From Candidatus Wirthbacteria bacterium (GTDB taxonomy: Bacteria > Patescibacteriota > CG2-30-54-11), in contig CAISZI010000047.1 of assembly GCA_903889905.1 (NCBI GenBank), forward strand, positions 80,096 to 144,095: 64,000 nt of DNA. Reading direction: 5' to 3'. A program made the position numbers and the translations under genes. The notes below the pieces were generated by a model. That model was not told where the DNA came from. It worked only from the letters and a program-made list of their open reading frames with translations, and ran no database searches. Positions within the stretch are counted from its first letter, which is position 1, and each line of letters begins with the position of its first letter. Below are positions 20,823 to 48,648 of the stretch, piece by piece.

Positions 20823-20855
20823 CTCCGTCAAGACTGACGGAGTTTGTTTTTTGTG
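20823..20855 (+). terminator. intrinsic terminator after trpS
   Basis: CTCCGTCA-AGAC-TGACGGAG hairpin followed by TTTGTTTTTTGTG. Confidence 0.65.
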
Positions 20856-20894
20856 TTAAAATTATACCCTTTGCTTATTATTTCCAAGGTGCCT

Positions 20895-23800
20895 ATGCAA
20901 CGGTTACGCTGGTTTGTCCTGATGGTTATCGCCACGCTGTTGACGACGACAATGCCCGCAATGACAGTCAAGGCGGCAACTACCCCTAGCCCGATCAATA
21001 TCATCAAACCACTCCCTATTGCCGACACTCCCCTGACCGGTCTGATCGTCAAACTCAAAGACGGCATCGCTGAAAGCTATCTGCAGAACCTGATTACTCC
21101 CCCCAAAACGACTTTGCCCGTGACGACCGCAAAAAAGACACTTGCAACCACGCAACCCATTATCAAAGTAAGCACTGCAAGTTTGACACGCTTGTACAAC
21201 ATTGGTAGTGATGGAACGAAAAACCCCGCCACAATCAGCCCACCCAGACTTTATCTGATCAACACAGACACCACCACGGCAGACGTTCTTAGCAAAACCC
21301 TGCTCAGTGATGGTAAGGTGGATTATGTCGAAAAAAATCTGACTCGCTCCACCTCTGCCGAGCCCAATGACCCTTATTTTAGCCAGCAGTGGGCTCTCAA
21401 CAATTCCGGTCAAAATTTCGGTACTGCGGGCGCAGACATTCAGGCCATCAATGCCTGGACCCTGCAACCCGCAAAAACGCCTATTACCGTGGCAGTGCTC
21501 GATACCGGCGCTGACCTGGCACACGAAGACCTGGTCGGCAATTTCTGGACTAATAACAAAGAAATTCCCGGCAATGGCATCGATGATGATGGCAATGGCT
21601 ATGTCGACGACACGCTGGGATGGAACTTTGTCAGCAACAACAATCAACCCGTCGACGGCAGTGGCCATGGCACCCACGTCAGCGGCATTATCGCAGCCAC
21701 CCGCGACAACAACAAAGGGATTGCCGGCATTTGTGGCAACGACGCAGCGCTTGGTATCAGTGGCTGCAAACTGATGGAACTCAAGGTGTGTAATGACAAC
21801 AATAGCTGCAATTATTGGGACATCATCCGGGGTATTGTGTATGCCGTCGACAATGGCGCTCAAGTCATCAACCTGAGTTTGGGTTCTACGGCTTACTCAC
21901 AATCTGAACAGGACGCCATTACTTATGCCTGGAACCGTGGGGTTGTGGTGGTCGCCGCAGCAGGCAATAACAGCACGAACACCCGCGTTTATCCGGCGGC
22001 CAATGATCATGTACTGGCGGTCGCCGCAACCGACAATGGCGACAATCCGGCTTATTTTTCCAGTTATGGTGACTGGGTGGATCTGGCGGCGCCTGGGGAT
22101 ACCATCCTCAGCACGACGTTAAATAACGGCTACCGGACCTTGAGCGGGACGTCCATGGCCTCGCCGCATGTGGCGGCGGTTGCTGCCCTGGCCAAAATGC
22201 AGCATCCCTCCTGGACCAATGACCAGATCGCGACTTTGCTGCAATCTTCTGCAACTTCCATCGACAATCACTATATGACCTATGCCGGCCTAATCGGAAC
22301 AGGTCGCGTGAGTGCCTATGCAGCACTGGCCAACGACAACCTCATGACCTCACAATTGCTTACGCCACTTCTCTATGGAACTTACAACGGAGCACAGATA
22401 AATATCGTCGGCAGTGTTACCAACTGGAGTGAGACGGGTACAACCTCTCAGCTGCGGTGGAATCTAGAATTCGCCAGCGCCAACTCTCCGGACACATGGA
22501 CCTTCCTCACTCCACTTGCTGTTCCCCGCTTCTACCCCAACGCCGAGTTGCTCGCGACCTGGGACATCCATACGCTGGTGGACGGCAGGTACTACCTTCG
22601 TTTTACTGCCAACACGTACTCCTCGATGAAACGCCCTTTTCCCGCCGGCGAGCTACTCTATCCCTTTCGCCAATTGGTCAAAATCATCCCCATTAACATT
22701 GATCACACCTCGCCCGTGGTCCAACAACCAGGCTGGCCCCAAAACACCACGGGTAGCAGCATCTTTTCATCGCCACTGATCACTGACCTGGACGTTCCCG
22801 GCACCTCTTTCAATGGCCAGGAAGTCATTGCCGGCGACATTGGCGGCAACCTGTATGTCTGGAATGTCGACGGCTCAATACGCAGTGGTTTTCCCAAAAG
22901 AATCAGCTCGCCCGGTGATGGTATTTATGGCGCGATCAGCGCCGCTGACATTGATGGCGACGGCAAACAGGAACTGTTTGGTACCACGTTTAATGGCAAT
23001 GTCTTTGCCATACGCAATGATAGCTCACCCGTTGCTGGCTGGGAAACTCCCAAACAAATGGCCAGAATGTGGGCCGTTGCACCCATCCTGGCCGACATCA
23101 ACAATGACCACAAGCTCGAAGTCATCGTGGTCGATGGCAATGGCACACTTAATGTCTGGAAAACCGACGGCACTCTACTTTGGACCAGAACACTCGCTGG
23201 TGGAGTCATTCATTCTACCCCAGCTGTGGCAGACATCAACCGTGATGGCAACAAGGAAATAGTCATTGGCACGGCTAACAAACAACTGTTTGTGGTTAGT
23301 GGCGACGGCGTTGTGACTCAAATCGCCACAACCGCCGGCAGTGTTAATGGCGAAATTATTCTGGCTGATCTGGACCAAAACAATTCTGACCTGGAAATCA
23401 TCGTGCCTTCCAACAATTCGTCGACTGATGGCAGCGTGCAGGCCTTTGAACCAAACGGTGCTCTGCGCTGGCAAAACAACATTGCTTCTTCTCTCTACGA
23501 TTTGGCGGTAGGCAAATTGGATTCGTCCAAAACCACTTTAAGCGTCGTCACGGGTGACTTAAACGGCAAAGTTGCTGTTTGGGACGCAGCTGGCATTGGC
23601 GGCAATATCGCCACACTGGACAGCGCCATCAAATCCCAACCACTTGTCGCTGATTTCAATGGTGATGGCCAACAGGAAATTCTCGTCACCAGTTCCACCG
23701 GCAAAGTGTATGTGATGAACAAAACTGGAACCCAATTGCTCGCGCAACCCTACCCATTATCGACAGGTGTCGAAAACGCATCTCCCACGATCGGCAGTGT

Positions 23801-24185
23801 CGATCAAAACGGCAATATTGAAGTCGCTTTTGGCAGTACAGATGGCAAAGTTCAACTGCTAAGTTTCAAAGGCGCACTGACCGCAACGTCGGTTGAATGG
23901 GGAACGTACCATGGGAACAATACCCGTACCGGCGAATACAGTCATCTATCCACCCAGGCTGGCGACGCCACGCTCAATGGCACGATCAGCTCGCTCGATG
24001 CCTATTATGTCTCACAATACCTGGCCGGCTCCATGACACTCTCAGCACAAGCCTACGAAAACGGGGCAAAAATGTGGGCACCTTATGACTCCATCACCAG
24101 CGCCGACACCATGGCCATTTTGTATTGCTCAGCCAGCGGTTTGCCATACCCACGCTGTCTGGGTGGATTTGTGGCGCAAAACTAA
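20895..24185 (+). CDS. secreted subtilisin-like serine protease (peptidase S8) with C-terminal FG-GAP/beta-propeller repeats and a dockerin-like tail
   Basis: Signal peptide (start MQRLRWFVLMVIATLL with AAGGTG RBS). S8 catalytic triad motifs VAVLDTGAD, GHGTHVSG, GTSMASPHVA. At least six DxDGDG/DINxDxxxE FG-GAP-like repeats. C-terminal GDATLNGTISSLDAYYVSQYLAG resembles a dockerin Ca-binding segment. Confidence 0.8.
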   Translation: MQRLRWFVLMVIATLLTTTMPAMTVKAATTPSPINIIKPLPIADTPLTGLIVKLKDGIAESYLQNLITPPKTTLPVTTAKKTLATTQPIIKVSTASLTRLYNIGSDGTKNPATISPPRLYLINTDTTTADVLSKTLLSDGKVDYVEKNLTRSTSAEPNDPYFSQQWALNNSGQNFGTAGADIQAINAWTLQPAKTPITVAVLDTGADLAHEDLVGNFWTNNKEIPGNGIDDDGNGYVDDTLGWNFVSNNNQPVDGSGHGTHVSGIIAATRDNNKGIAGICGNDAALGISGCKLMELKVCNDNNSCNYWDIIRGIVYAVDNGAQVINLSLGSTAYSQSEQDAITYAWNRGVVVVAAAGNNSTNTRVYPAANDHVLAVAATDNGDNPAYFSSYGDWVDLAAPGDTILSTTLNNGYRTLSGTSMASPHVAAVAALAKMQHPSWTNDQIATLLQSSATSIDNHYMTYAGLIGTGRVSAYAALANDNLMTSQLLTPLLYGTYNGAQINIVGSVTNWSETGTTSQLRWNLEFASANSPDTWTFLTPLAVPRFYPNAELLATWDIHTLVDGRYYLRFTANTYSSMKRPFPAGELLYPFRQLVKIIPINIDHTSPVVQQPGWPQNTTGSSIFSSPLITDLDVPGTSFNGQEVIAGDIGGNLYVWNVDGSIRSGFPKRISSPGDGIYGAISAADIDGDGKQELFGTTFNGNVFAIRNDSSPVAGWETPKQMARMWAVAPILADINNDHKLEVIVVDGNGTLNVWKTDGTLLWTRTLAGGVIHSTPAVADINRDGNKEIVIGTANKQLFVVSGDGVVTQIATTAGSVNGEIILADLDQNNSDLEIIVPSNNSSTDGSVQAFEPNGALRWQNNIASSLYDLAVGKLDSSKTTLSVVTGDLNGKVAVWDAAGIGGNIATLDSAIKSQPLVADFNGDGQQEILVTSSTGKVYVMNKTGTQLLAQPYPLSTGVENASPTIGSVDQNGNIEVAFGSTDGKVQLLSFKGALTATSVEWGTYHGNNTRTGEYSHLSTQAGDATLNGTISSLDAYYVSQYLAGSMTLSAQAYENGAKMWAPYDSITSADTMAILYCSASGLPYPRCLGGFVAQN

Positions 24186-24197
24186 TCCGTTTCTACT

Positions 24198-24599
24198 TCA
24201 GGGCTCTCCTTGGCTAACTTTACTGATACAAATTGACTGTTTGCTATCAAATTTATAATACCAGTCACCACCACTGTAATTGGTCAGTGATCTTATTTTG
24301 CCACCCAGAACTTGGCAGGCCAATGGATTGGTGATGAAACAGCCTTGTGCATAGCCTGAATCGTGCGGCCCAAAATCTCCAACATCATAGTAATAGTTCC
24401 GTCTTGTTCCACCCAACAAACTGCAGAACATGGAGTTGGTACTGCCGAGTTTGTTTTGATAAACCCCACCTGCTTCATTAATATTTTTCAGCAGCACGAA
24501 GACACAACCGGCGGCAAGAATCAGCACAACAGCAACTATTATAATGATCTTGATATGGCGCTTTATCCAGAAAATCACCATTTTGATTATGGAAAACAA
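24198..24599 (-). CDS. small Cys-rich type-II membrane-anchored protein, paralog 1 (N-terminally truncated relative to its paralogs)
   Basis: TM IKIIIIVAVVLILAAGCVFVLL, then an ectodomain with CSLLGGT and GCFITNPLACQVLGGKI motifs. The ancestral start ATG is followed by TAA, where the paralogs have TCA. Confidence 0.5.
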   Translation of the reverse strand: MFSIIKMVIFWIKRHIKIIIIVAVVLILAAGCVFVLLKNINEAGGVYQNKLGSTNSMFCSLLGGTRRNYYYDVGDFGPHDSGYAQGCFITNPLACQVLGGKIRSLTNYSGGDWYYKFDSKQSICISKVSQGEP

Positions 24600-24660
24600 A
24601 TGGGCAAAAGTTGGAAATGTTTCTTTGATTTACATTGCAAATCACCTTAAACTTATAAGC

Positions 24661-25086
24661 CTAGAATCTAACTCCATTACAAGAATCTGCCGCATTTTGA
24701 GTCTGACAAATTGGTTTATTTGAAGTGCCTTGGAACTCATCGCCGCACGTTTTTGGTACTAATTTTCCACCTGCTATAAAACAAGTATCAGGTGAAGTAA
24801 CAAAACAAGTACTTTTGAAATTGTTGTATTTGTCTTGAGGTGGCAGCAAGATAGTTCTATATTCGCCACCGATAACAGCGCATGTTAATGAATTATTGAT
24901 TAAACTTGAATTATAAGTAAATATTGAGGAATAATTTCCAAGCGTCGTTGATTCCCCAACCAATCCATAACGAAACAAAAAGTACATGCCTAAAACTAAA
25001 ATTATTACAATCCGATTGATCCGTAACTTTCGCCAATTTACGATGAAAGAATGATAGAAACTCGACATCGTTTCTTTGAATGCCAT
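24661..25086 (-). CDS. small Cys-rich type-II membrane-anchored protein, paralog 2
   Basis: N-terminus MAFKET..., TM helix, ectodomain with CAVIGGEY and CFVTSPDTCFIAGGKL motifs. Confidence 0.55.
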   Translation of the reverse strand: MAFKETMSSFYHSFIVNWRKLRINRIVIILVLGMYFLFRYGLVGESTTLGNYSSIFTYNSSLINNSLTCAVIGGEYRTILLPPQDKYNNFKSTCFVTSPDTCFIAGGKLVPKTCGDEFQGTSNKPICQTQNAADSCNGVRF

Positions 25087-25160
25087 GTTTATTTACCTTT
25101 AAAAAAAATTGGCACGACTTTATAATTCAGTTGCAAATCCGTGTAATTCCCACTCGGCTT
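25087..25160 (-). repeat. duplicated copy of the last ~70 nt (C-terminal SGNYTDLQLNYKVVPIF plus stop) of the 1447-aa gene
   Basis: Near-identical to 25797-25870 (4 substitutions); lies immediately upstream of the paralog 2 start. Confidence 0.6.
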
Positions 25161-25163
25161 CAA

Positions 25164-25604
25164 TTAATAATCGGATAAATTTCTAAAAGTGCAGACCGAT
25201 TGCATGCTGTTAAACTTAATAGATGGTCCATCGACACCTTCAGCTCGTGCTGTTATTGTAATGATTTTCCCTCCAATCATGACACAGGCTAAGGGACTTG
25301 ATATAAAACATCCATGGTCGTGAATGCTAGTATCGACGCCAGGTGTCCACCCGCCGTTAGAGGTATACTCCAAATAACTCCCACCCATAACTCCACAAAG
25401 CAACGCGCTGTGGCTGGCGAGCTTGTTGTGATAAACACCAACTAAAATATTGATATTAAGCAAGACGAAAACACAATATACAGCAATTATCAGCGTTATC
25501 TTGACCCAACGTTTCAACTGGGTAAAACTTAATATAATTTTGGTTAACAGGTTTACAAAAGTCGGAAAGATTTCCTTAACAGACATAGTGTTCCCTAAAA
25601 ACAA
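25164..25604 (-). CDS. small Cys-rich type-II membrane-anchored protein, paralog 3
   Basis: Likely start MSVKEIFPTF (25586). TM ITLIIAVYCVFVLL; ectodomain motifs CGVMGGSY and GCFISSPLACVMIGGKI closely match paralog 1. Confidence 0.55.
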   Translation of the reverse strand: MFLGNTMSVKEIFPTFVNLLTKIILSFTQLKRWVKITLIIAVYCVFVLLNINILVGVYHNKLASHSALLCGVMGGSYLEYTSNGGWTPGVDTSIHDHGCFISSPLACVMIGGKIITITARAEGVDGPSIKFNSMQSVCTFRNLSDY

Positions 25605-25653
25605 TGTTAATTCTACAAGCTAACGGTACCACAAGTATTATAAGTTTATCCCC

Positions 25654-25782
25654 ACAAATTCTTGGTAAGAATCCCCCCCGCAACGAGCAGTATCCTCTTG
25701 GACTTTTTGTAACTTGGCTATCAACGACTTAATTCTGGGAATTGGAACGATAAAACTCGGAAAGGCTTCTTTGATTGACATA
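25654..25782 (-). pseudogene. N-terminal fragment (MSIKEAFPSF..., about 45 codons then stop) of the same small-protein family
   Basis: Conserved N-terminal motif MS(I/V)KE(A/I)FP(S/T)F followed by a premature stop; no TM or Cys-rich domain. Confidence 0.4.
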
Positions 25783-25793
25783 GCTTTTTACCT

Positions 25794-28700
25794 TTAAAAA
25801 ATCGGCACGACCTTATAATTCAGCTGCAAATCCGTGTAATTTCCACTCGGCTGCAGGTTGTTGGATTCAAATTTAAACGTGAGATAGGCAAAATCCTTGC
25901 CCTCGATCTCACCTGAGCTTGCGGTTCCGTTATACAGGACTTCATAAAACTGCTTGAGGTCATCAAACCCAGCCCAGGTATCAGGATTGGCAAAACGATT
26001 ATGGGTACCGGTCCCCAGTGACCCATCACTGGTGTGGTAGCCGACAAACGCCGTATCCTCACCCACGGTTGTGCCCAACGGCGAGGCCCAGGCAACGGGC
26101 GCGGCATTGGTACCGACAGTGCCATTTTTGACAAAATCCACCACCACCGACGAATTGGTCTGCAAAGCCATTTTCTGGCTGGCGCTAATGTAGACGCTAT
26201 AACCCGATTGGGCATTGGAAACAATGCTGACTTTCTCTACCGCGGTTTTGGGTACGTTGGGCAAGACCTGGGTGATGGCCACCAAACCGTTTTGCCCACT
26301 CAAATCGATCTCGCCGCGATTCGTGCCTTCCAATACCAGCGAAAGCGAAGGTTGAATCCAGGTCGTAAGCTGCGCGTTGTTGGAAAAGGGCGTTTCCAGC
26401 TCGTCGGTGTTGCGCGCTTTCACTTTGACCGTATAGGTTTCGCCTCCGCTCAAGCCGCTGAGCAAAATCCCGCCTTCGCTGCCGAAGTCAGCGTAGGACT
26501 TCCAGTCCGCAGCATGCAACGTGGTGGCCAGCGTCAAATTGGCCTGCACATAACGTGTGTCGTGCACAAAATTATCTGAGGATATTGCCACCGCGAGCAG
26601 CACGGAAGCGGGATTGCTGCCATTGTCCAAAATCACATGCATTTTGGTGTAGTCACCATTACTGAGTATGGGTGCTCCCGGCGTGTTGGCGGCCGTATAA
26701 CGACTCAAAACGCTGCTGTATGCGGAATTCCCCGCGCCGTTCTGGGCTCGAATTTTGTAAACATGAAACGTATTGGGCAGCAGGCTGGTGTGGGCAAATG
26801 TGGTCACATTGGCGGCGGGTGCGTTGAGTTGAGTAAACATGCTGCCGTCCGTGGAATGTTGCAAATCGAAACTGTCTTCCTGGGATTGGCCACTGGCGTT
26901 GTCGGTCCAGCTGAGGCTGATCGCCGTTGGCGTGATCGACGTTGCAACCAGCAAACTAGGAGCCGCAGGGCTGTCCTGCATACCAAAAGCTGCGGGAGAA
27001 CTCCAGACCCCGGTATTGCCTTCCGCATCCCAAAAGCGAAGACGATAATAATACGTAACATTGCCATCATTGGTCGTCAGGCTTTGCAAAGGTGTGCTGC
27101 CAAAGCTGCCATAGACCAGATTGGAGTTGCGGCTGCCGATGTTGACGGATGCAATTGCTGTGCCACTTGCGCCACTGTCCCAGTGCGTAATTGAACCAAA
27201 AGAATTGTCGGTTGAAACCTGTATTTCGGCTTTGGTCGCGGTGTCACCACTGTCGGCATCCTGGTAGACTGCGCTAAAAGCGGGTGTGCTGCTGGTCAAA
27301 CTGATCGGGTTGGCACGACCGGTTTGAGCCGAAGTATTGTCGACATAGAGCGTTGTCGGCGCTGCTGGCGCGTTTTGGTAATCCAATGTAATCGAACTCA
27401 ATTGTGGCGAAGGACCCGTAAAATAGGTGCGAAAAGCAAAGGCACCGCTGCCGACTTCACTGACAAAACTGCTCACATTACTGTTCACTGTACTGGCATC
27501 ATTGCCAATCAGGCCATTGGGAGCCACCACCCAGGCGTTGCCTTGATGCATGTACCAGGTGCTGCCACCATCATTGGAAAGTTGGTAAGTCAGCAACCCG
27601 TTATGTCCACCACCGGTTACTTCGTCAAAGCCAACCAGTTTGGTAAAAATGGGTCGATATGTGGCATTGGAAATCGTCGGCACAAATTCGCTGCGACTGA
27701 TGTTTTTGGCATTCACCAACGCAGCAATCTGACCGGAATTAAATGGCGCGTCAGCAATGCGGACTTCGGCGATCACGGCATCGGCTTGATTTTGGTCACT
27801 TATATCCGCGCCCACATGAATCGTACTCCCCAACGATGGCGGATTAAAACCACCGCTGACTGCTCCGGCCACCCCATTGACATAAAGCTGCATGTCACCA
27901 CTCCCCCAATTGGCCACCACCTGGTACCATTTCCCTGGCACCCATACCGACACATCAAACGTGGCGTCATGTACTCCGTCGTTCAAGGTCAACTGTCCCG
28001 CGCTGGATTTGAAGAGTTTGAATTGACCGACGCTCGTGTCAAGTGTGAATAACGCATGTTCAACCCCATCAGTGCCACGCCAAAGTGGTTCCACCCACAA
28101 ACTGAGGCTGCCCGCCGCTGCCTGCACATGACCAGTGGTCAAAAAATGCAACACGTCGTCGCTCCGGGTACTGGTACTGTTGTTGGCCGAACCGGTCCAG
28201 GCGTAACCCGTTCCCAGCGAACCATCACAATAACTGGTGCTGGCCTGGTTGGCCTCAACCTGGAAACCATCAAGATAGAGATGCTGCCCGGCTTTGACCG
28301 CCACCCCAAAATCTTTGACGGCAAGGCTGGCACTCACATTTTCGGCTGCCAATCGCCACCAGCCCCCGCCCAAATTTTGATATATTGTCGTGACCGTCGC
28401 ATTATCATAATAAAGTTCGGCTACACTATTCGTCACTGTTCCACCCAGACTACCTGATGTGGCATTGTAAACAAAGGCCGACAGACTGACCGTGCTGGCG
28501 CCAGGATTCAGAGCCGTCGTATAGGTGCCGTCCGCATACAGATAAGTGTTGTCCAATTTGACCGAATGCGCCCCAAAGCGGGCAAAACTGACACTGCTGT
28601 TGTTACTCGCCGAAAGTCCGGATGACGACCAATGACTGTTGTAGGTGCCCGCCTCAAAGGACGGATTTAATACCAGATTGCTGGTGCCGCGCTCAATCAC

Positions 28701-30137
28701 AAGGCCATCGAGTTTCGTCAGGCTACCAGCAGGAACAGGACCACTGTCATTGTTGTTGCCATCCACACCGCTTAACCCTCGTACCAAACCGGGGTTGCCA
28801 TTCACCGTAATGGTCGCACCATGGCCGCTGCCGTCCTGCGTCAGACTACTCCAGTTGTCGGTGACGGAGCCATCCAGGGGAAGCAGCAAAACGGTATAGT
28901 CGTCGTTACTCCAGGGGGCAAGCGCTGGCGTAAACGCCTGACTGTAACGCACGGTGCTCGAAAGCCGTGCTGCACTGAGATAACCGGCAAACCCGCTGTT
29001 GCTGCCATTCCCCGAAACATACAGCGTGGAAGAACTCGCTGGAATCGGTACCGTGGATGTCGCGGCACCGTCCTGGTTACCATTCAACCAGAGTTTGAGC
29101 TGGTTGGTGGAAGTGTGGCGATCAAAAGTCATGGCCACATGGGCAAACGTGTTTAAACTCAATGTTGCGCTCGACGTCGCAATCACCCAGCTGCTACCAT
29201 TCCAAAGCCCACCGGCAAGCTTACCCGTCGCGTTAATTTTGAGAAAATAATTGCCGTTGCGATGCAATAAATACTGATCTGCGGCCGGCATCATTTTGGG
29301 CGACACCCAGGCTTCCAGCGTCAGGTTGTCAGAGATATTGAACGATGTACTACTTGCAACGGCAAGCGCATCATCCGCGCCATTAAAACTCACCGCCGCA
29401 CTTTGCCCGGCAAATCGCCCGGTACCACTGCTAGCGGTCGGTGTGCTGCCATCGACGGCTGCCAGATCGCGGTGCAAATCCACCCCCAGTAACGTGGTGG
29501 CTGCGCCGACATTCAGTGCGTCTGTCGGAGCGGTTTGGGCGCTCGCCGCAGCATAGCCATGATAAAGATAAAACTGGGTATTGCTGCTACTGCCAGCCAA
29601 AGCAACAGGGAGCTGAAACGTGAGGCGCGTAGCCTTGGAATCATTACATCCACTCGCACCTGCGGCAATCGCCACGTCGACCGGCAATTCCTGATTGGCG
29701 CTACCGTTATAATAAACAAGGTGTGCATCGTAGCAATTGTTTAAAAAATTCCCGAGGTCCGCGCTATTCACTGTCACTGTCGATGGCGTCAATGCATCCA
29801 CCGTGTTACCACCCAAATTTTCTAGTTTCATTATTTCTCGGCTACTGTAGTGGCTATCCCACCAAGGAACTTTAAGCTCAGCCATCCCGCTTTGCACCTG
29901 CACGTGGTCAGCATCAAACTGATAATCCGACCCCATGCCAAAATCCCAAGTCTGACTGCCGGCATAGGCATGCAACCAGTTTTGGTAATACTGGATAACA
30001 AGTGCAGTGGTGACAAAAAAGAAAATCGAAACGGACGCGAGTAGCACCAATAAAGCAAAATACCGCGGTCGGGGGGCGGATGATTGCGGATTGTTTTGCG
30101 TTAATTTTTCGTAAACCGCCTTGATCGAATTCAGCAT
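25794..30137 (-). CDS. large secreted/surface protein (1447 aa) with LamG/ConA-like lectin domains, FN3 domain and C-terminal WxL-like domain
   Basis: N-terminal TM/signal; a LamG-like block (LTLEAWVSP...HVAMTFD); an FN3-like block (PAAPSLLVATSITPTAISLSWTD...YKIRAQNGAGNS). The C-terminal ~110 aa are homologous to the C-terminus of ORF 33443..34597 (AAPVAWA...TWAG...NNLQPSGNY...P). Confidence 0.75.
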   Translation of the reverse strand: MLNSIKAVYEKLTQNNPQSSAPRPRYFALLVLLASVSIFFFVTTALVIQYYQNWLHAYAGSQTWDFGMGSDYQFDADHVQVQSGMAELKVPWWDSHYSSREIMKLENLGGNTVDALTPSTVTVNSADLGNFLNNCYDAHLVYYNGSANQELPVDVAIAAGASGCNDSKATRLTFQLPVALAGSSSNTQFYLYHGYAAASAQTAPTDALNVGAATTLLGVDLHRDLAAVDGSTPTASSGTGRFAGQSAAVSFNGADDALAVASSTSFNISDNLTLEAWVSPKMMPAADQYLLHRNGNYFLKINATGKLAGGLWNGSSWVIATSSATLSLNTFAHVAMTFDRHTSTNQLKLWLNGNQDGAATSTVPIPASSSTLYVSGNGSNSGFAGYLSAARLSSTVRYSQAFTPALAPWSNDDYTVLLLPLDGSVTDNWSSLTQDGSGHGATITVNGNPGLVRGLSGVDGNNNDSGPVPAGSLTKLDGLVIERGTSNLVLNPSFEAGTYNSHWSSSGLSASNNSSVSFARFGAHSVKLDNTYLYADGTYTTALNPGASTVSLSAFVYNATSGSLGGTVTNSVAELYYDNATVTTIYQNLGGGWWRLAAENVSASLAVKDFGVAVKAGQHLYLDGFQVEANQASTSYCDGSLGTGYAWTGSANNSTSTRSDDVLHFLTTGHVQAAAGSLSLWVEPLWRGTDGVEHALFTLDTSVGQFKLFKSSAGQLTLNDGVHDATFDVSVWVPGKWYQVVANWGSGDMQLYVNGVAGAVSGGFNPPSLGSTIHVGADISDQNQADAVIAEVRIADAPFNSGQIAALVNAKNISRSEFVPTISNATYRPIFTKLVGFDEVTGGGHNGLLTYQLSNDGGSTWYMHQGNAWVVAPNGLIGNDASTVNSNVSSFVSEVGSGAFAFRTYFTGPSPQLSSITLDYQNAPAAPTTLYVDNTSAQTGRANPISLTSSTPAFSAVYQDADSGDTATKAEIQVSTDNSFGSITHWDSGASGTAIASVNIGSRNSNLVYGSFGSTPLQSLTTNDGNVTYYYRLRFWDAEGNTGVWSSPAAFGMQDSPAAPSLLVATSITPTAISLSWTDNASGQSQEDSFDLQHSTDGSMFTQLNAPAANVTTFAHTSLLPNTFHVYKIRAQNGAGNSAYSSVLSRYTAANTPGAPILSNGDYTKMHVILDNGSNPASVLLAVAISSDNFVHDTRYVQANLTLATTLHAADWKSYADFGSEGGILLSGLSGGETYTVKVKARNTDELETPFSNNAQLTTWIQPSLSLVLEGTNRGEIDLSGQNGLVAITQVLPNVPKTAVEKVSIVSNAQSGYSVYISASQKMALQTNSSVVVDFVKNGTVGTNAAPVAWASPLGTTVGEDTAFVGYHTSDGSLGTGTHNRFANPDTWAGFDDLKQFYEVLYNGTASSGEIEGKDFAYLTFKFESNNLQPSGNYTDLQLNYKVVPIF

Positions 30138-31108
30138 CAGGGCCCTCCGGCGTGTTGTTGCTCAAACACGGCCCGCGCCTTGGCGTCTTCAAACACCAGC
30201 ATGGCTCCCACCGGACGGCTGGCTTTGCCTACGATCGGCTGAATGCTGAGCCGCACTGCAAACGGCAGGGTTTGCGGCGTGGCAAAATGCACCATCAATT
30301 GACTCACACTGCGACTGCGATAAAGCACACCCAGCAGCAGGCCTTCTCCGACTTCAACGTCCGCGTGACGACTGTCGGTAATCGTCAGTATATCGGTGAT
30401 CACCTGACCTTTGACCTCGACCTCACGCAGGCCTGTCATGGTGGCAGCGGCTTTGGAAAATTCTTCAATCCGTAATTCCATGTCCACAAAGCACACCCCT
30501 GCACTGATGGCGTCAATCAGCGCTTCATCGCCCTCTTCTACGGTCTGCAGTAATTGTTGTGTCAGATACAGCTCGCCAAGTTCCTTTTCCGCCAGCTGGT
30601 AACGGTATCCCAGAAAAAGTGAAAGGGGTGCGAACGCCAGCAGAGAGCCTAAACGCGTCAAAGTGAAATACATTTGCTCCCAGGTGATGACACTCATCCC
30701 GTGCTCGAACCAGACCAGCGCGACCAGCATTAACCCCAGTTCTGCCAGTGACACCTCGAGCCGCAGCGCAAAGCTGCCGAGTAACAGCGCGATCAGCAGC
30801 AGAAAAAAATACGCCGATCCAGTCCCACCGGTTAGTTCCACCCAAAGCAAACTAACCATCCAGATCAACCAGACATTAAGATAACGATAGAGCGTCCGCG
30901 AGAGGATTTCGGCACGCAGTCCGATCATGAGGTTAAACATGACAAACAACCCAATCAGACTGATTATCAAATAGTGCTGCCACCCGCTAGGCAGGAACGC
31001 AAGTGGCAGCACCAGTGATAACAAAAGTATTTGGCCAAGCCCAACCAGCGCGCGACTTCCCAGCGTTTTTGTTTTCCATTGTTGCAGTTGTTGTACATAC
31101 AGCACCAT
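30137..31108 (-). CDS. polytopic membrane protein with C-terminal cytoplasmic PAS-like domain and no output domain
   Basis: About 8 TM helices, then DAISAGVCFVDMELRIEEFSKAAATMTGLREVEVKGQVITDIL (PAS-like). Shares base 30137 with the stop of the 1447-aa gene. Confidence 0.5.
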   Translation of the reverse strand: MVLYVQQLQQWKTKTLGSRALVGLGQILLLSLVLPLAFLPSGWQHYLIISLIGLFVMFNLMIGLRAEILSRTLYRYLNVWLIWMVSLLWVELTGGTGSAYFFLLLIALLLGSFALRLEVSLAELGLMLVALVWFEHGMSVITWEQMYFTLTRLGSLLAFAPLSLFLGYRYQLAEKELGELYLTQQLLQTVEEGDEALIDAISAGVCFVDMELRIEEFSKAAATMTGLREVEVKGQVITDILTITDSRHADVEVGEGLLLGVLYRSRSVSQLMVHFATPQTLPFAVRLSIQPIVGKASRPVGAMLVFEDAKARAVFEQQHAGGP

Positions 31109-31120
31109 GGCTTGGCCTTT

Positions 31121-32404
31121 TTATTTTTTCCGCAGACGAAAATTACTTTTGGCAATTTTAACCGTGGCTGGCGCTGCTTGCTTTTCCCAGGGGAATTTCT
31201 CCCAGTCACTGCGTATCATGGAGACCTCCACCGGATGAGTGAGCGCCTCCCCGCGCTGCATCACGACGTGCTGAAGTGCGGAAACTTGTTGGACGACCGG
31301 TGCCACCTGCTTACGATCACCCGGCCAGGCAACGGGTTCAAAGGTGAATTTAGAATGCTGTTTCGTCATTTTTGTGGCAAACAAATGGGTGCGCTGTTTG
31401 ATGGACTTCAACCAACGGAGAGGAATCCCCCTCTGCCACTGACGGCGTTGTTGTTTTTCTTTTTTGGCGTCATCATCCTTACCCAGCAGCGCCATCAGCC
31501 ACCGGCCCAGGTAAATCAGATTAACCAGCGTTTGCATGGTCATCGAGAGCAGCATCACCAACAGCAAAAACAGTATAAACTTGCCGATACCCGTATTAAA
31601 AAAAGCACTTAACGCGTCTGCCGACAGCATGCCCGGCAAATAGCCATAAGCCCCATCAAGGCTGCTGGCCTGCGTTACCGTTAAAATGGCATCTGTACTT
31701 TTCAAACTACTTACGCCGCTGCGTTTGGCTGTCGCCACAATAAAATATTTGCCAGCGGCAATCCCGCTGACGAAATCATATTGCGCCAAACCATACGAAT
31801 CAGTCGTAGCGGTATAAGTCTGCGTGTCACCCTTGTCGCTGCGCATGCCAAATTCCACGCTGCAACTGAGGCAGGCATAGCCAAGCAAACTGACCGCCTC
31901 ATTGCTTTTGACGCTTTTTTTGCTTAAATCCACCAGCGGCGGCAGCACTAAATTCTTGGTCGCGTCGATCTGATAGGCCGAAGGTTTGAAGACAAATGGC
32001 AGATGCGCGCTTTCCAGGCCTTTGTAACTGCTATAAAGGCTGAAATGCTCTTCCATGTCTTTTTTGCGATCCAGCACAAACGGTAGGTTGAAAGTACCAT
32101 CCGTACCGACTTCCTGCTGGATATAGATGCGTTTCGCTGTTTCGTCGTACAAAATAGCTTTGGCATAAGGCACGGTAAAACCGCTGAACTCCACCTGTAC
32201 AAACAAATCCGTGGGTGTCACCACCTGCGCCGACATCTGCACCTGCGCTTCGTCCGCGCGCAGACTGGCTGTTGGTAAAATCATACCAAACACAAAAAAC
32301 CCAAGCAGAATCAGCTGCCTGGGATGCCGCAGTAACCACAACGGAAGATCGATAAAAAATTTTAGCTCACGCTGACGCGTAGCTCTCCTGCCAGGAGTAC
32401 GCAT
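31121..32404 (-). CDS. hypothetical surface protein with C-proximal TM anchor and basic cytoplasmic tail
   Basis: N-terminal hydrophobic segment, a large extracytoplasmic domain, TM (FILFLLLVMLLSMTMQTLVNLIYL), then a K/R-rich tail. Confidence 0.5.
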   Translation of the reverse strand: MRTPGRRATRQRELKFFIDLPLWLLRHPRQLILLGFFVFGMILPTASLRADEAQVQMSAQVVTPTDLFVQVEFSGFTVPYAKAILYDETAKRIYIQQEVGTDGTFNLPFVLDRKKDMEEHFSLYSSYKGLESAHLPFVFKPSAYQIDATKNLVLPPLVDLSKKSVKSNEAVSLLGYACLSCSVEFGMRSDKGDTQTYTATTDSYGLAQYDFVSGIAAGKYFIVATAKRSGVSSLKSTDAILTVTQASSLDGAYGYLPGMLSADALSAFFNTGIGKFILFLLLVMLLSMTMQTLVNLIYLGRWLMALLGKDDDAKKEKQQRRQWQRGIPLRWLKSIKQRTHLFATKMTKQHSKFTFEPVAWPGDRKQVAPVVQQVSALQHVVMQRGEALTHPVEVSMIRSDWEKFPWEKQAAPATVKIAKSNFRLRKK

Positions 32405-32449
32405 GTCGAGTTTGTCTTTTTGATATTTGTTTTTGACGGACGAACAGGG

Positions 32450-33388
32450 TTATTTTTTGCGGACAACCAGGAAAATGCCGACGCCAATCAGGAGCACGCC
32501 GGCGATCACTACGCTGTAAACCAGGATGTCATTGTTTTTGCTGTTCACCACCGTGGCGGTATTTTTGACCGTCACGCTTTGCGCTGAACTGCTCTGCAGT
32601 GTCGATTTGTCCAAGGGCTGGCTCGCAGTCAGGATTTTATTGTCATGACCATAGGCGAGCGAGACGCGGGCGGTATAGGCTTTGGTTTCAAAATCCAAAG
32701 CGTCGATCGCGATGGTTACCCGGCGATCTTTGCCAGGGAAAACATTGACGCTGTCCACGCTGTAGGTTTCGGCGACCGAGCCGTTCAACATCAAATCGAT
32801 TTTGCCGGAAACCGTGGTGTGCACATTGCCGGGGTTATGTAAAACCAAAGTAATGTCTTTGGTTGTTGGCACAATCTGGCTGAGTTCCATTTTTTCGGTT
32901 GGGCTGCCAATGACCACAGAATAGAGCGTCTGCAGTTGTTGCTTAGTCTGGTTGGAGCCACCGCTCTGCTGGCCGGAAATCGTGGTGATCGCCGTCACAT
33001 AATAACCTTGCGCGGTCGTATTTTTGGGAACTGTCACCGTGACTTTGACATCTTTGGAAGCAGCTTTGGCCAAGGTGAACGCCGCGCTGTCAGTACCAAA
33101 CCAAGCCGCTGGATTGGCGGTCGTGGGAGTGGTGAGTTCGGTTGGTGAACCACTGTCATCGACGGTAAATTCCTTGAACGTGACCGTAAAATCCTTAATC
33201 TCGGCGGTGTTGTTCTGAATTTTCAAAATCAAACTTTTGATATCTCCGGCGTTGGCTGTAACCGTTTCCTTGATGGGATCGATCAAAATCGCTTCCGCTG
33301 CAGCCCTTGCCCCGCTCACGACACTCCCCATGGCCACGAACATCGCCACTGCGGTTAGGCCAAGGCTGAGAGGTTTACTCAATTTCAT
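32450..33388 (-). CDS. DUF916-like (CscA-like) cell-surface protein: signal peptide, beta-rich ectodomain, C-terminal TM anchor plus RKK
   Basis: Signal peptide MKLSKPLSLGLTAVAMFVAMGSVVSGARA; C-terminal VYSVVIAGVLLIGVGIFLVVRKK. This topology matches the DUF916 partner proteins of WxL clusters. The DUF916 assignment itself is inferred. Confidence 0.5.
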   Translation of the reverse strand: MKLSKPLSLGLTAVAMFVAMGSVVSGARAAAEAILIDPIKETVTANAGDIKSLILKIQNNTAEIKDFTVTFKEFTVDDSGSPTELTTPTTANPAAWFGTDSAAFTLAKAASKDVKVTVTVPKNTTAQGYYVTAITTISGQQSGGSNQTKQQLQTLYSVVIGSPTEKMELSQIVPTTKDITLVLHNPGNVHTTVSGKIDLMLNGSVAETYSVDSVNVFPGKDRRVTIAIDALDFETKAYTARVSLAYGHDNKILTASQPLDKSTLQSSSAQSVTVKNTATVVNSKNNDILVYSVVIAGVLLIGVGIFLVVRKK

Positions 33389-33442
33389 TTTTGTCTCCAG
33401 GTAGGTGAGATTTGTTTTGGGTGCTGCAGTGCGTCGCCAGGA

Positions 33443-34597
33443 CTAAAAGATTGGCTTGGCGATAAAGGTAATTGTATTGGCATAGTTACCCGAAGGCTGC
33501 AGGTTGTTCGTTTCCAGTTTGAATGTTACATCAGCGCGATCTTGACCGTCAACATCACTCTGTGTGGCATGACCATGATAAAGCACTTCAGATGAAGTAG
33601 CCGTGAGTCCTGCCCAGGTATCCGCATCGGTAAAACGGTCAGCCGTGCCCACACCCAATGTCGCGTCGCTGGTGTGGTAACCAAGGAACCCGGTATCCAC
33701 CCCGATCGTTGTCCCGGCAGGAATCGCCCAGGCAACAGGAGCGGCATTGGTGCCAACCAGAGTGTTTTTGATCGGGTCAATATCAATTGTCGCGTCAGCA
33801 CTGTGCTGCATGTTGTGATCCTGTTTGACGTAAACCGTGAAACCCTGCTTGGCGTCAGTATTGACCTTGAGGCGCATAACAGCGGTTTTGGCAACACCAG
33901 GGGTCACTTCGCGCCATTCAATGAAGTTGGGGCCAATAGTGCCACCCGCAGGAGCGGTCTGCCCAGCCACGGAAAAAGTCATCTGGGGTTTCTGTGAACC
34001 ATAAATGTCAACATGTTCGATGGTGGCGACCAGAATATCAATCGTATCAATGGTGGCACTAGTGCCATCCTGGGAGGTCACATCAACATTCCAAATATCC
34101 GCCGTGCCGGTTGCGGCGACTTTGGCCGGGTTCAAGATCTGATGCGTGCCACCCGCATTGGTTCCAATCTCAATCGTGATAGCTGACGCTGCAATCACCG
34201 TATCTGTGTCATTATTGGTCAGGGTGATGCTGCCGCTTGTGCCAGAAACAATATCCACGCCCCAGGCTGAATCCGCGCCGGTGCCTGGAGTTGCTGCCAG
34301 AGTTTGTGCCGTGACACCGAGTTTCAGACTGATGTCGCCAAACACCAATCCAGCAGGAATGCTGAATTTGGTGGCTTCCGGTGTAATCACCAATTTCCCG
34401 TTTACCGGGATTGTCTGTACCGTCGTGAATTTTAGTGTCCAGTCTGACGCTGTCGACGGATTGGAATCACTGAGCTCGAGGGAAGCCGCGTTGAACTGAT
34501 ACTGCACCGCGTGGGCAATGTTGGTAAATGGGATCATTGCCAGCACGAGGGTGCAGGTCATGGCCCAAGATAGCCATTTTTTGTTTTGCAGGTTCAT
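33443..34597 (-). CDS. secreted protein (384 aa) with C-terminal WxL-like domain
   Basis: Signal peptide. C-terminal ~110 aa are homologous to the 1447-aa protein C-terminus and end GNYANTITFIAKPIF, comparable to the WxL pattern G.Y....W.L...P. Confidence 0.6.
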   Translation of the reverse strand: MNLQNKKWLSWAMTCTLVLAMIPFTNIAHAVQYQFNAASLELSDSNPSTASDWTLKFTTVQTIPVNGKLVITPEATKFSIPAGLVFGDISLKLGVTAQTLAATPGTGADSAWGVDIVSGTSGSITLTNNDTDTVIAASAITIEIGTNAGGTHQILNPAKVAATGTADIWNVDVTSQDGTSATIDTIDILVATIEHVDIYGSQKPQMTFSVAGQTAPAGGTIGPNFIEWREVTPGVAKTAVMRLKVNTDAKQGFTVYVKQDHNMQHSADATIDIDPIKNTLVGTNAAPVAWAIPAGTTIGVDTGFLGYHTSDATLGVGTADRFTDADTWAGLTATSSEVLYHGHATQSDVDGQDRADVTFKLETNNLQPSGNYANTITFIAKPIF

Positions 34598-34820
34598 TTA
34601 ATTTCTCCTTTTTTGTAGGTCTTTTTACAGTTATGTTTTTAAAAATGTATATAAAAATTTGGCTATCAACCGTTGATTTAGTTTACCCAAATCAAATTAT
34701 TATACGCCTTATTCAGGAAATCTGTCTAGTATGCTAACAATACTGCCACTGGTAAGCAAGTTTTGTTATAATGATCGCGCTTTATCAACCATCCATTTTC
34801 TCATGCACGGGACGATGCTT

Positions 34821-35816
34821 ATGAACTGGAACCTGCTTGCGTTGGTGGCCGTCACTTTTGTCGGGACGCTGGTGTTGACACCGGTGGCCGGAGCAATCGC
34901 CAACCGCCTCAACATTGTCGATCGACCCGGAGGGCGGCATCAGCATGCCCGCGTGATACCAAAACTCGGCGGACTCTCCATCTACATAAGCCTGTCTGTG
35001 GTGGCGCTGCTGTCGCTGGGCCGTTCAACCAGACTGCTCGAGATCCTGGGCGTTGGTTTTATTTTTCTGCTGATCGGCATCATTGACGACGCGTTCCATC
35101 TCACACCCTGGACCAAACTGTTTGGCCAGCTTGCCGGCGCAATCGTGCTGGTTATGTGTGGCGTCACCATCAGTTCTTTTGGCAACCCACTGACAACCCA
35201 ACTTTATTCCCTGGGTGGGTTGGCGATGCTGGTGACTGTCCTCTGGATTGTCTCAACCGTCAATATCGTCAATCTTACCGACGGAATTGATGGACTGGTC
35301 AGCGGACTCACCATTATCAGCGGGATTGTTCTGGCAATCTTGAGTTTCAAAACCGGCCATCCCAATACCGGCAAACTGACCTTGATTTTTGTGGGCGCCG
35401 TGGCGGGTTTCTGGGTTTATAACTTTTATCCGGCCAAAATTTTTCTCGGGGATAGTGGCAGTATGCTGATCGGTTTTATGCTGGCAGTGCTGGGGTTCCA
35501 AGGTGGTGCCAAAATCGCCACCGCTTTCCTGGTACTGGGCGTTCCCATTCTGGACGCAGGTTTGATTGTTGCCTATCGTTTCCTCTCGCACCGCCCGATC
35601 TATCAGGGCGACCGCAACCATTTGCATTTTCGGCTGCTCGATAGCGGCATGAGTCAAATCAAAGTTTGCCTGCTACTCTATGGCGTGAGTGCCATCTTAG
35701 GCGCGATTGCACTGCTGGTACCAGGCAAACAAAAAATGCTCACCCTGGCATTGTTTGCCATCACATTTGTGATTGGGTGGGCACTTTTGTGGCGTTACGA
35801 AAAGCGCCTGAAGTAA
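34821..35816 (+). CDS. polyprenyl-phosphate N-acetylhexosamine-1-phosphate transferase (WecA/TagO/MraY family, GT4)
   Basis: Motifs IDDAFHLTP, NIVNLTDGIDGLVSG and FLGDSGS are typical of the MraY/WecA family. Start chosen at MNWNLLALV. Confidence 0.75.
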   Translation: MNWNLLALVAVTFVGTLVLTPVAGAIANRLNIVDRPGGRHQHARVIPKLGGLSIYISLSVVALLSLGRSTRLLEILGVGFIFLLIGIIDDAFHLTPWTKLFGQLAGAIVLVMCGVTISSFGNPLTTQLYSLGGLAMLVTVLWIVSTVNIVNLTDGIDGLVSGLTIISGIVLAILSFKTGHPNTGKLTLIFVGAVAGFWVYNFYPAKIFLGDSGSMLIGFMLAVLGFQGGAKIATAFLVLGVPILDAGLIVAYRFLSHRPIYQGDRNHLHFRLLDSGMSQIKVCLLLYGVSAILGAIALLVPGKQKMLTLALFAITFVIGWALLWRYEKRLK

Positions 35817-35834: not shown

Positions 35835-37235
35835 TTAAACATTGGCAGCAGCTGGTTGGGCAGGCGCGGCAATGGACAGTGGCGGCGCAGCAACCGGGGA
35901 TGATTTGGGCATCGCCTTGGAAGCATCAATACCTTTGACTGTGGGCACGCTGGCGCTGGTGTCCGCGTCGCTTTGGACTTTTTCGGTTTCCTGCATCAGC
36001 TTGCCAATGCGATCAATAATCTGTTCTGGCGTAAGCGGTTCGGGTGGTGTCGCTGACGGCTTGGTTTCCTTGGCTGGCGCGGTGATCTGGAAGCTCGCAT
36101 TCGTAAGATGTTCACGGATTTTGGTGAGCACTGATTGGGAGGCTTCATCCAGGCTAAGGCCCGTTAAAGTGAACCCGGCGGCTGGATCATGTCCGCCACC
36201 ACCAAAGAGAGCGGCGATCTTGGAGGCACTGAATTTGGGGGAAGTACGGATGCTGCCGCGCACCTGTTTCTGGCCGTCTTCGTAGAGTACCATGGCGACT
36301 TTGGTGTCAGGGACATGGGCAATCAAATCATTGAGTGCGACCGAGGCGTCGTCTTCATCGGCCTTGGTTTCTTTGAAATCCTGCTGGCTGACTGTAGCCC
36401 AGACAATGCCATGTTCGCTGTCCTGCTTAATCTTGGAGAGAATGCGGCCCCACAATTTGAGCGTCGCCACGGATTTGCGGCGATAGATATTTTCGATCAC
36501 CAGCTGCAGGTCACCACCGGCTTCCATGAGGCGCGCGGCTGTGGCAAAGGAATCGGCTGTGGTCGAAATATGCTGAAAACTGCCCGTGTCAGTGACAATG
36601 GCTGTCAGCAGCGCAGTTGCCGTGGAGGCTTCGAGGGCATATTGCAAATATTTGGCAAACTGGTAAACGATTTCACCCGTGGAAGGCGATTTGCTATCCA
36701 CCAGATTGAGCTTGCCCGGTACGGAGTTGCTGACGTGGTGGTCAATATTGAGAATGTCCGTGGATTCAAAAAACTGCTGGTTTTTGGCATACAAATCGCC
36801 AAGCAGGGATAAATCCGGGGTGTCGAGCATGATGATCAGGTCGTAATTTGGTTTACCATAATCCAGCGACACTTCCTCAAAATCGAACTCGCCGCTAACA
36901 GGGGTAACGACCAGGTTAAGCACGTCGTCAATGATGTTGTAGCTGACCTTGTCCACGGTCGTTTTTTGACAATTGATGCGGACAATCAGATCGAGTGAAT
37001 CAAACTTGGGCTTGATGCCCACGCTGCCGCCAATAAAATCAAACTTGGCCGGGACGGGATCGCTGCAGAACATATCAAGCTGTTTGCCGCGGCTTTGCAG
37101 GATATTGCGCAAGGCCACCATGCTGCCGATCGCATCGCCATCCGGGCGACGGTGGGTGATCATCAGGATTTTTGCTTTGGTATTAATGAGCTCATCCACA
37201 CTCTTGAATTCGGCAGACGTCAGACTGGAAGCCAT
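35835..37235 (-). CDS. DHH/DHHA1 family phosphoesterase (NrnA-like) with low-complexity C-terminal tail
   Basis: Motifs ITHRRPDGDAIGS, DHH (NIDHHVSN) and GGGGH (DHHA1). Start at MASSLTSAEF with AGGGGG RBS. Confidence 0.8.
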   Translation of the reverse strand: MASSLTSAEFKSVDELINTKAKILMITHRRPDGDAIGSMVALRNILQSRGKQLDMFCSDPVPAKFDFIGGSVGIKPKFDSLDLIVRINCQKTTVDKVSYNIIDDVLNLVVTPVSGEFDFEEVSLDYGKPNYDLIIMLDTPDLSLLGDLYAKNQQFFESTDILNIDHHVSNSVPGKLNLVDSKSPSTGEIVYQFAKYLQYALEASTATALLTAIVTDTGSFQHISTTADSFATAARLMEAGGDLQLVIENIYRRKSVATLKLWGRILSKIKQDSEHGIVWATVSQQDFKETKADEDDASVALNDLIAHVPDTKVAMVLYEDGQKQVRGSIRTSPKFSASKIAALFGGGGHDPAAGFTLTGLSLDEASQSVLTKIREHLTNASFQITAPAKETKPSATPPEPLTPEQIIDRIGKLMQETEKVQSDADTSASVPTVKGIDASKAMPKSSPVAAPPLSIAAPAQPAAANV

Positions 37236-37317
37236 AAAACCCCCTGTATCATTAGACCGGATGAAATAGTACCGACAGATCGGGCCCGCTGCGCCGCGGG
37301 CCCGACCAGCCTGAAAT

Positions 37318-48588: not shown

Positions 48589-48648
48589 GCAACCTCCCTG
48601 ATAAAGCAGATAAAATCTAGGTAAAAAAGTAGAAAACAACTTTCAGGT

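Follow-up and report, generated by a model that had tools for sequence, protein, structure and literature searches.

Gene content of the locus

The window analysed here, the whole 64,000-nucleotide (nt) stretch of contig CAISZI010000047.1, carries at positions 25794-34597 a candidate pilus operon: five minus-strand open reading frames (ORFs) that encode, in gene order, proteins of 384, 312, 427, 323 and 1447 amino acids (aa). The operon is tightly packed, with translational coupling. The first four genes are separated by gaps of 54, 45 and 12 nt, and at the last junction the stop codon of the fourth gene overlaps the start codon of the fifth (TGATG). An original prediction, made from the letters alone, had read this locus as a csc-like (WxL-type) surface-complex operon. 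From the homologies, domain architectures, synteny and strand motifs computed here, I retain the architecture of that reading and its DUF916-like partner, and give up the WxL identity of its C-terminal domain. Its inventory of the locus also holds: the five ORFs lie where they had been placed, all on the minus strand; the 1447-aa protein has LamG and FN3 domains by Pfam; a membrane protein with transmembrane (TM) helices and a PAS domain is embedded in the operon; and there is a second TM-anchored ectodomain protein, the 427-aa product, with a hydrophobic segment near its N-terminus and a TM helix spanning residues 276-294.

33443..34597, minus strand: 384-aa Pam-family pilin, putative shaft subunit (AlphaFold2 model, hidden Markov model (HMM) family, and Pam-pilin matches of its relatives)
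32450..33388, minus strand: 312-aa membrane-anchored WxLIP/PapD-like chaperone (signal peptide, two immunoglobulin (Ig)-like domains, TM helix, RKK)
31121..32404, minus strand: 427-aa candidate pilus anchor or terminator, PamR-like (hydropathy, synteny, N-terminal strand pattern)
30137..31108, minus strand: 323-aa polytopic membrane protein with a cytoplasmic PAS domain (Pfam PAS, E 4.4e-7) and no output domain
25794..30137, minus strand: 1447-aa putative large adhesin subunit (Pfam, BLASTP and the HMM of the Pam C-terminal domain)

The pilin and its C-terminal module

Pam pili were described in the candidate phyla radiation (CPR) bacterium Candidatus Mycosynbacter amalyticus by cryo-electron microscopy (cryo-EM) of filaments (Troman et al., bioRxiv 10.64898/2026.03.03.709456). 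In their pilins, PamA and PamB, a linker strand connects an N-terminal beta-sandwich to a truncated Ig-like C-terminal domain, which takes up the linker of the following subunit. The pam operon also encodes the membrane-anchored PapD/FimC-like chaperones PamC and PamD, each with a C-terminal TM helix, as well as PamE and the tip subunit PamT, which has the C-terminal domain only and no linker. PamR, a TM-anchored terminator, is composed of an N-terminal donor strand, two FnIII-like domains and a C-terminal TM helix (all Troman et al.). Two NCBIfam models, NF058581 and NF058579, represent the system.

The 384-aa protein has the same layout. Its AlphaFold2 model (pLDDT 83.5) consists of two beta domains joined by a strand, with strands at residues 35-193, the linker strand at 206-214 and a C-terminal domain, an Ig-like beta structure, at 225-382.

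34508-34597, minus strand: signal peptide (residues 1-30)
34001-34507, minus strand: N-terminal beta-sandwich (residues ~31-199)
33926-34000, minus strand: linker and putative donor strand QKPQMTFSVAG (residues ~200-224)
33446-33925, minus strand: putative C-terminal acceptor domain (residues 225-384), with a free carboxy terminus ending in KPIF

A profile search of 1.84 billion representative proteins (threshold E<=1e-3) recovered 2405 clusters homologous to the pilin, most of them full-length matches of ~350-400 aa. I sampled and aligned 90 full-length homologues, each matching the window-family profile at E<=1e-34. More than half of these (54/90) match NF058581, the CPR_Pam_pilin_C model, and one, P0143, does so above the curated cut-off (59 bits against 55); a single homologue matches the PamT model and none matches WxL. 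The N-terminal domain and linker of P0143 align with those of the window pilin (BLASTP 2e-5). Because of these matches among its relatives, and because the one that passes the cut-off aligns with it, the 384-aa protein is a divergent member of the Pam pilin family. Furthermore, the donated strand and its binding site are reported to be the most conserved parts of Pam pilins (Troman et al.), and in agreement with this the linker phenylalanine F208 is among ~12 near-invariant positions of the 90 diverse sequences.

The C-terminal module of the pilin recurs at the end of the 1447-aa protein, with 48% identity over 158 aa (BLASTP, E 5e-46). The family HMM extends the shared module to ~182 aa, residues 1266-1447 of the larger protein, linker strand included (E 2.9e-33). 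Thus, the homology that had been claimed for these two C-termini is real and the module is longer than the ~110 aa first assigned to it. In the large protein the module follows an array of recognisable domains:

residues 30-48: N-terminal signal anchor
28947-29384, minus strand: first Laminin_G_3 domain (residues 252-397; Pfam E 2.3e-26)
27723-28133, minus strand: second Laminin_G_3 domain (residues ~669-805; Pfam E 3.9e-12)
26979-27320, minus strand: Ig_Rha78A_N domain (residues 940-1053; Pfam E 1.5e-9)
26706-26963, minus strand: fn3 domain (residues 1059-1144; Pfam E 1.1e-11)
25797-26342, minus strand: pilin linker QPSLSLVLEG and Pam-type C-terminal domain (residues ~1266-1447), ending in VPIF

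The second locus with this gene order (L005, below) encodes a homologue that is 43% identical over the full length, and the profile search also returned two other large proteins with the C-terminal domain, P0040 (1429 aa) and P0089 (2681 aa).

Such a distribution raises the question of whether the module could be a mere sorting, secretion or wall-anchoring tag, comparable to the C-terminal domain of the type IX secretion system (T9SS), an S-layer anchor or a sortase signal, carried by two unrelated proteins whose neighbouring membrane proteins have nothing to do with them. Its strictly C-terminal position behind very different N-terminal regions (in proteins of 384, 1447, 1429 and 2681 aa) would fit a tag, as would the solitary pilin paralogues that have no adjacent chaperone-like partner gene in several genomes (L002, L004, L017). 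A tag is nonetheless very improbable: the module matches no sorting-domain family and is followed by neither a TM segment nor an LPXTG-like motif, it is a domain of ~160-180 aa with Ig-like beta structure from a family with solved pilus structures, and in six independent loci the gene right after the pilin encodes a PapD/WxLIP-like partner. T9SS-type and other sorting domains were rejected as candidates in their own right (no match in the Pfam and NCBIfam scans), and so was a sortase pilus, since the pilins lack a sortase signal, LPXTG motif or TM tail, their C-terminus being free and conserved, and the window ORFs scanned include no sortase.

With pilin profiles the sequence search of the PDB gave chance-level matches only (NK receptor 2B4, 0.06; Caf1, 0.03), and Foldseek with the full pilin model returned generic two-domain Ig matches of low TM-score (integrins, CfaE/CfaB, BcpA), which cannot discriminate between candidate families.

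The N-terminal domain of the Pam pilins also serves as a repeat module outside pilins, since P0027, a 3077-aa protein from the profile search, holds nine tandem copies of it. In P0018 and P0021 this domain is kept and the C-terminal domain is replaced by a dockerin. Dockerin type I modules are also found in an FN3 protein adjoining a Pam locus (L007:4670-6940) and in an S8 subtilase/FG-GAP protein of the window itself (20844-24185, plus strand). The recurring dockerins hint that an attachment layer of cohesin-dockerin type accompanies these pilins.

A partner homologous to WxLIP

In Firmicutes, WxL/Csc clusters encode a small and a large WxL protein, a WxLIP composed of DUF916, DUF3324 and a TM segment, and a small LPXTG protein (Hassan & Williamson, PMC9772566, PMC10599100). 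The 312-aa product of the second gene had been predicted to be a DUF916-like partner with a signal peptide, beta domains, a C-terminal TM helix and RKK, and model, hydropathy and WxLIP homology all bear this out. Its AlphaFold2 model (pLDDT 72.4 overall, 80-90 in the domains) shows two Ig-like domains, a long hairpin whose tip is disordered, and a helix at the C-terminus; word-indexed homologue searches gave five sequences only, which limits the quality of this model.

32909-33289, minus strand: Ig-like domain 1 (residues 34-160)
residues 129-160, within domain 1: long conserved hairpin, TKQQLQTLYSVVIG
32612-32887, minus strand: Ig-like domain 2 (residues 168-259)
residues 272-281, between domain 2 and the TM helix: segment VTVKNTATVV
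32465-32533, minus strand: TM helix (residues 286-308; helix at 286-311 in the model), followed by RKK

In Foldseek against the PDB, the top three matches of this model are Enterococcus faecium WxLIP (entries 9i1y and 9i25, E 5e-10 to 9e-10). They are followed by the chaperones of chaperone-usher systems, CfaA, EcpB, FimC, CsuC, PapD, Caf1M and YadV, chaperone-subunit complexes included, at E 1e-8 to 3e-6 and target-normalised TM-scores of 0.5-0.63. Sequence profiles point the same way. Searched against 177,635 PDB sequences, the chaperone-family profile found only EfmWxLIP1 (E 3.4e-5, over both domains), the next entry being EcpB at 0.23. Supporting this, the partners of 308-322 aa that follow the pilin in three more distant Pam loci resemble the 312-aa protein (tblastn 5e-18 to 3e-7) and match PF06030 (WxLIP_PGBD/DUF916) just below threshold (2.2e-5 to 0.024). 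Finally, using the printed EfmWxLIP1 fragment as tblastn query, I retrieved seven WxL clusters of Firmicute plasmids and compared their WxLIPs with the chaperone family by hhalign:

Full length (277 columns): 98.2% probability, E 3.9e-14
Ectodomain, trimmed of signal peptide and TM helix: 95.5%, E 1.4e-8
First Ig-like domain by itself: 95.7%, E 1e-8
The five sequences of the window clade: 89.5%, E 2e-6
Second Ig-like domain by itself: 1.0%, P 0.054, in register

The 312-aa partner is a true remote homologue of WxLIP. DUF916 matches in CPR genomes (TM7x_00820 and a Kazan protein) are already present in Table S5 of PMC10599100, and the Pam preprint mentions neither WxL nor DUF916. The homology suggests a relationship between the Pam pili of CPR bacteria and the WxL/Csc clusters of Firmicutes.

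One further element of the partner is the segment VTVKNTATVV, which has low pLDDT, is nearly invariant in the chaperone clade of the window and is absent from the more distant partners of L006-L008. It could be a second strand-donating or regulatory element.

The subunits that such a partner would serve are a separate matter. No Pfam or NCBIfam match to WxL, DUF916 or DUF3324 was obtained at E<=1 for any of the five proteins, the 312-aa partner included. Nor does WxL figure in the family list of the 90 pilin relatives, which were scanned at E<=10, and no WxL chain is among the best 50 Foldseek matches of the pilin model. When the 90 Pam-type C-terminal domains were compared by hhalign with ten real WxL domains (small and large, also pooled), the alignment covered only the final 23 columns, the last beta-hairpin, at 3.5% probability and P 0.012, which is not significant; unrelated pairs gave P 0.08-0.6 and small against large WxL gave 96.3%. 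In this hairpin "V.ykieI..lQeAG.Yt.tltYI" faces "tYtstltW". HMM-sequence searches between WxL and the Pam C-terminal domain were not significant in either direction, and their best alignments lie on the same terminal hairpin, in register. The proposed parallel to the two WxL motifs therefore survives as a distal hairpin in register and not as significant homology. The domain has a proximal W-A-[IS] motif and, in place of the distal Trp, Phe or Asn, and this distal parallel to WxL is visible without being demonstrable as homology. I conclude that the shared domain is the C-terminal domain of CPR Pam pilins and not a detectable WxL domain. It is therefore likely to polymerise by donor-strand exchange rather than merely to bind peptidoglycan non-covalently.

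The principal alternative to a pilus is a non-polymeric surface complex of the WxL/Csc type, in which the subunits would be bound through their C-terminal domains to the WxLIP-like protein and/or non-covalently to the wall and would display the lectin and FN3 modules. This reading has real attractions. The partner is a genuine WxLIP homologue over both Ig-like domains, with the same C-terminal TM helix and basic tail, and 9i25, a crystal structure, shows WxLIP stably bound to a long WxL protein. In the WxL system a strand of the partner completes the beta-sandwich of the subunit. A small and a large subunit share a C-terminal domain, the large one with lectin-type or host-binding modules, and the order small subunit, partner, large subunit is also that of Enterococcus and Bacillus plasmid clusters (L009, L014, L015). 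Moreover, the distal Y-x-x-T-[IL]-T-[FYW] motif is in register with the second WxL motif, and some annotated WxL proteins (Ecr_s, Bcer_s) have Tyr in place of that distal Trp. I nevertheless regard a WxL/Csc complex as unlikely here. Beyond the failure of the domain to match WxL outside one hairpin, its family is one that has been seen to polymerise by cryo-EM, a conserved linker or putative donor strand precedes it in both subunits, and the small subunit carries an additional N-terminal beta-sandwich. The candidate anchor is a TM protein and no LPXTG (CscD-like) protein is encoded within 25794-34597. The host is not a Firmicute, and whereas the WxL literature consulted proposes peptidoglycan binding rather than polymerisation, that binding is itself largely inferred. 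As for the locus as a whole, it shows neither a T9SS-type C-terminal domain nor a complete lack of WxL/DUF916 similarity.

Proposed assembly, genomic setting and implications

Two membrane proteins complete the operon.

32216-32254, minus strand: conserved mature N-terminal strand DEAQVQMSAQVVTPT of the 427-aa protein (residues ~51-63), preceded by a signal peptide
31523-31579, minus strand: TM helix of the 427-aa protein (residues 276-294, by hydropathy), with an ectodomain of ~215 aa and a non-conserved basic cytoplasmic tail
30185-30526, minus strand: PAS domain of the 323-aa protein (residues 195-308)

The 427-aa protein has syntenic homologues in L001 (49% identity) and L005 (42%), and the mature N-terminus (D/E)EA(Q/K)V(Q/K)MSA(Q/E)(V/I)V-x-PT is kept in all three. 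With its alternating hydrophobic residues this strand resembles the linkers QKPQMTFSV of the pilin (pattern M-[ST]-[FA]-x-V) and QPSLSLVLE of the large subunit. Since such a conserved, linker-like strand at the N-terminus, together with the TM helix, fits the role of PamR, the 427-aa protein may, more speculatively, be the proximal terminator and membrane anchor. Comparison by hhalign of the 427-aa family with the chaperone, WxLIP, pilin and WxL profiles found nothing. In L005 the corresponding place in the operon is taken by a homologue of the PAS protein (30% identity, E 4e-39).

Taken together, the operon probably encodes a compact Pam-type pilus, assembled without an usher in a monoderm, CPR-like cell by chaperone-assisted donor-strand exchange. 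It resembles the pam operon in the architecture and family of its pilin, in a PapD-like chaperone with a C-terminal TM helix, in a membrane-anchored protein with an N-terminal strand as candidate terminator, and in having all components, presumably Sec-exported, encoded in one operon with neither usher nor sortase. It differs in being minimal, with one shaft pilin and one chaperone where the pam operon has PamA/B/E and PamC/D, in a 1447-aa subunit that joins LamG lectin, Ig and FN3 modules with a pilin linker and C-terminal domain, in the embedded PAS protein that is conserved in L005, and in a candidate anchor that lacks a detectable RbmA/FnIII signature. No ATP synthase genes are present among the window ORFs scanned, in contrast to the many pam operons that they accompany (Troman et al.). 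With chaperone-usher pili (Pap, Fim, CFA/I, Csu, Caf1) the locus shares the PapD-like two-domain chaperone fold and, presumably, subunits with incomplete Ig-like domains and donor-strand complementation and exchange. Unlike those systems it would operate without an outer membrane, its chaperone is membrane-tethered, its putative donor strand is an internal interdomain linker rather than an N-terminal extension, and sequence similarity is not significant (EcpB, E 0.23). None of the five proteins matches an usher family in Pfam or NCBIfam, the sole polytopic membrane protein being the small PAS protein.

Several observations weigh against a Pam-type pilus. The direct match of the 384-aa pilin to NF058581 is weak (E 0.013, 15.6 bits against the cut-off of 55, profile positions 11-148 of 148), and the 1447-aa protein has no direct match to that model in the NCBIfam scan. 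An HMM scan of all window ORFs found the Pam C-terminal domain only in these two proteins and no PamT-like gene, which makes the identity of the tip subunit uncertain. For the 427-aa protein, Pfam, NCBIfam and hhalign gave no match, FnIII or RbmA included, and the candidate donor strands were assigned from their sequence pattern only. Lastly, Pam pilins have been reported mainly in Saccharimonadia and Microgenomatia, whereas the closest relatives in the genome collection are metagenome-assembled genomes (MAGs) labelled Candidatus Wirthbacteria CG2_30_54_11, "uncultured Ca. Saccharibacteria" and "bacterium USDE_metabat.163".

From the cryo-EM of PamA/PamB (Troman et al.) and from chaperone-usher biology I infer strand exchange, the order of the subunits and what anchor and PAS protein do. 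On this model Sec would export all ectodomain proteins, and the 384-aa pilin and the 1447-aa subunit would each end in an incomplete Ig-like C-terminal domain. The membrane-anchored 312-aa chaperone would insert a beta-strand into that domain, probably one of its long conserved hairpin, and so stabilise it. The chaperone strand would then be displaced by the linker of the following subunit (QKPQMTFSV in the pilin, QPSLSLVLE in the large one), giving a head-to-tail chain in which the 384-aa protein would form the shaft and the 1447-aa protein, with its two LamG lectin domains and its Ig and FN3 modules, would be an adhesive subunit, at the tip or interspersed. More speculatively, the 427-aa protein would close the fibre at its proximal end with its N-terminal strand (QVQMSAQVV) and hold it at the membrane, and the PAS membrane protein may regulate assembly or couple it to the state of the cell.

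A second MAG (L005) has all five genes in synteny. Other related loci have the order PamT-like gene, pilin, partner of ~310-320 aa, with PamT-like genes in L006 and L007. Two MAGs carry two pilin loci each (L001 and L003; L002 and L005), and multiple pilin variants in one genome may share one chaperone. In the Firmicute plasmid WxL clusters L009, L010 and L014, each encodes an LPXTG protein of ~108 aa at a position equivalent to that of the 427-aa protein and PamR; this suggests that the LPXTG protein may be the wall-anchored terminator of a WxL fibre.

The remaining features lie around the operon.

34699..34728, minus strand: candidate operon promoter TAGACA-18-TATAAT (consensus match only; the best in 24000-35000, 11/12 positions)
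34731-35816, plus strand: Glycos_transf_4 gene (MraY/WecA-like), divergent from the pilin promoter region
35835-37373, minus strand: DHH/DHHA1 gene, between the operon and the giant adhesin
37318-48639, minus strand: giant adhesin of 3773 aa with 12 DUF11 repeats, DUF7507 and DUF7927, and a C-terminal sorting-like signal (LAGTG, TM segment, KKRK)
48750-53162, minus strand: 1470-aa protein after the giant adhesin, no Pfam match at all
24198-24599, 24661-25086 and 25164-25604, minus strand: three small ORFs of a low-GC island; two were scanned and neither has a family match
6712-7791 (minus strand), 13195-14175 (minus strand) and 55667-56362 (plus strand): other glycosyltransferase genes, PMT_2 and GT2

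The candidate promoter, which is sigma-70-like, lies in the intergenic region from which the pilin and Glycos_transf_4 genes diverge, ~100 nt before the pilin ATG. The Glycos_transf_4 gene and the DHH/DHHA1 gene separate the operon from the giant adhesin, which is thus not its immediate upstream neighbour as had been thought. Directly downstream of the operon lies the low-GC island (24000-26000, GC 0.40 against ~0.52 elsewhere), which could be foreign or fast-evolving DNA. The window contains no ribosomal RNA, transfer RNA or Rfam matches. As PamA is reported to carry a Ser-linked glycan (Troman et al.) and glycosyltransferase genes are present in the window, glycosylation of the pilin is conceivable here.

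Pam pili, identified only in 2026, are the proposed host-contact filaments of epibiotic ultra-small bacteria. The present operon would mean that a Pam-type system can be as compact as five genes, that it occurs in a lineage with nearest relatives labelled Wirthbacteria or unclassified, and that large lectin/FN3 adhesins can carry the pilin module, which gives a direct lead to the targets of these cells. The homology between chaperone and WxLIP joins two systems that have been described separately, a link absent from the Pam paper. In Enterococcus, Listeria and lactobacilli, WxL clusters have been connected with adhesion and virulence, and the homology makes polymerisation of WxL proteins by donor-strand exchange a concrete, testable question. 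A bolder proposal, which I hold only tentatively and consider somewhat doubtful, is that WxLIP and PamC/D are orthologous chaperones, that WxL and Pam C-terminal domains are divergent versions of one strand-accepting domain, and that the operon of the window is an architectural intermediate, with a small and a large subunit as in WxL clusters and a pilin of the Pam type. If this were true, WxL proteins, long treated as peptidoglycan-binding modules, would be pilus or fibre subunits.

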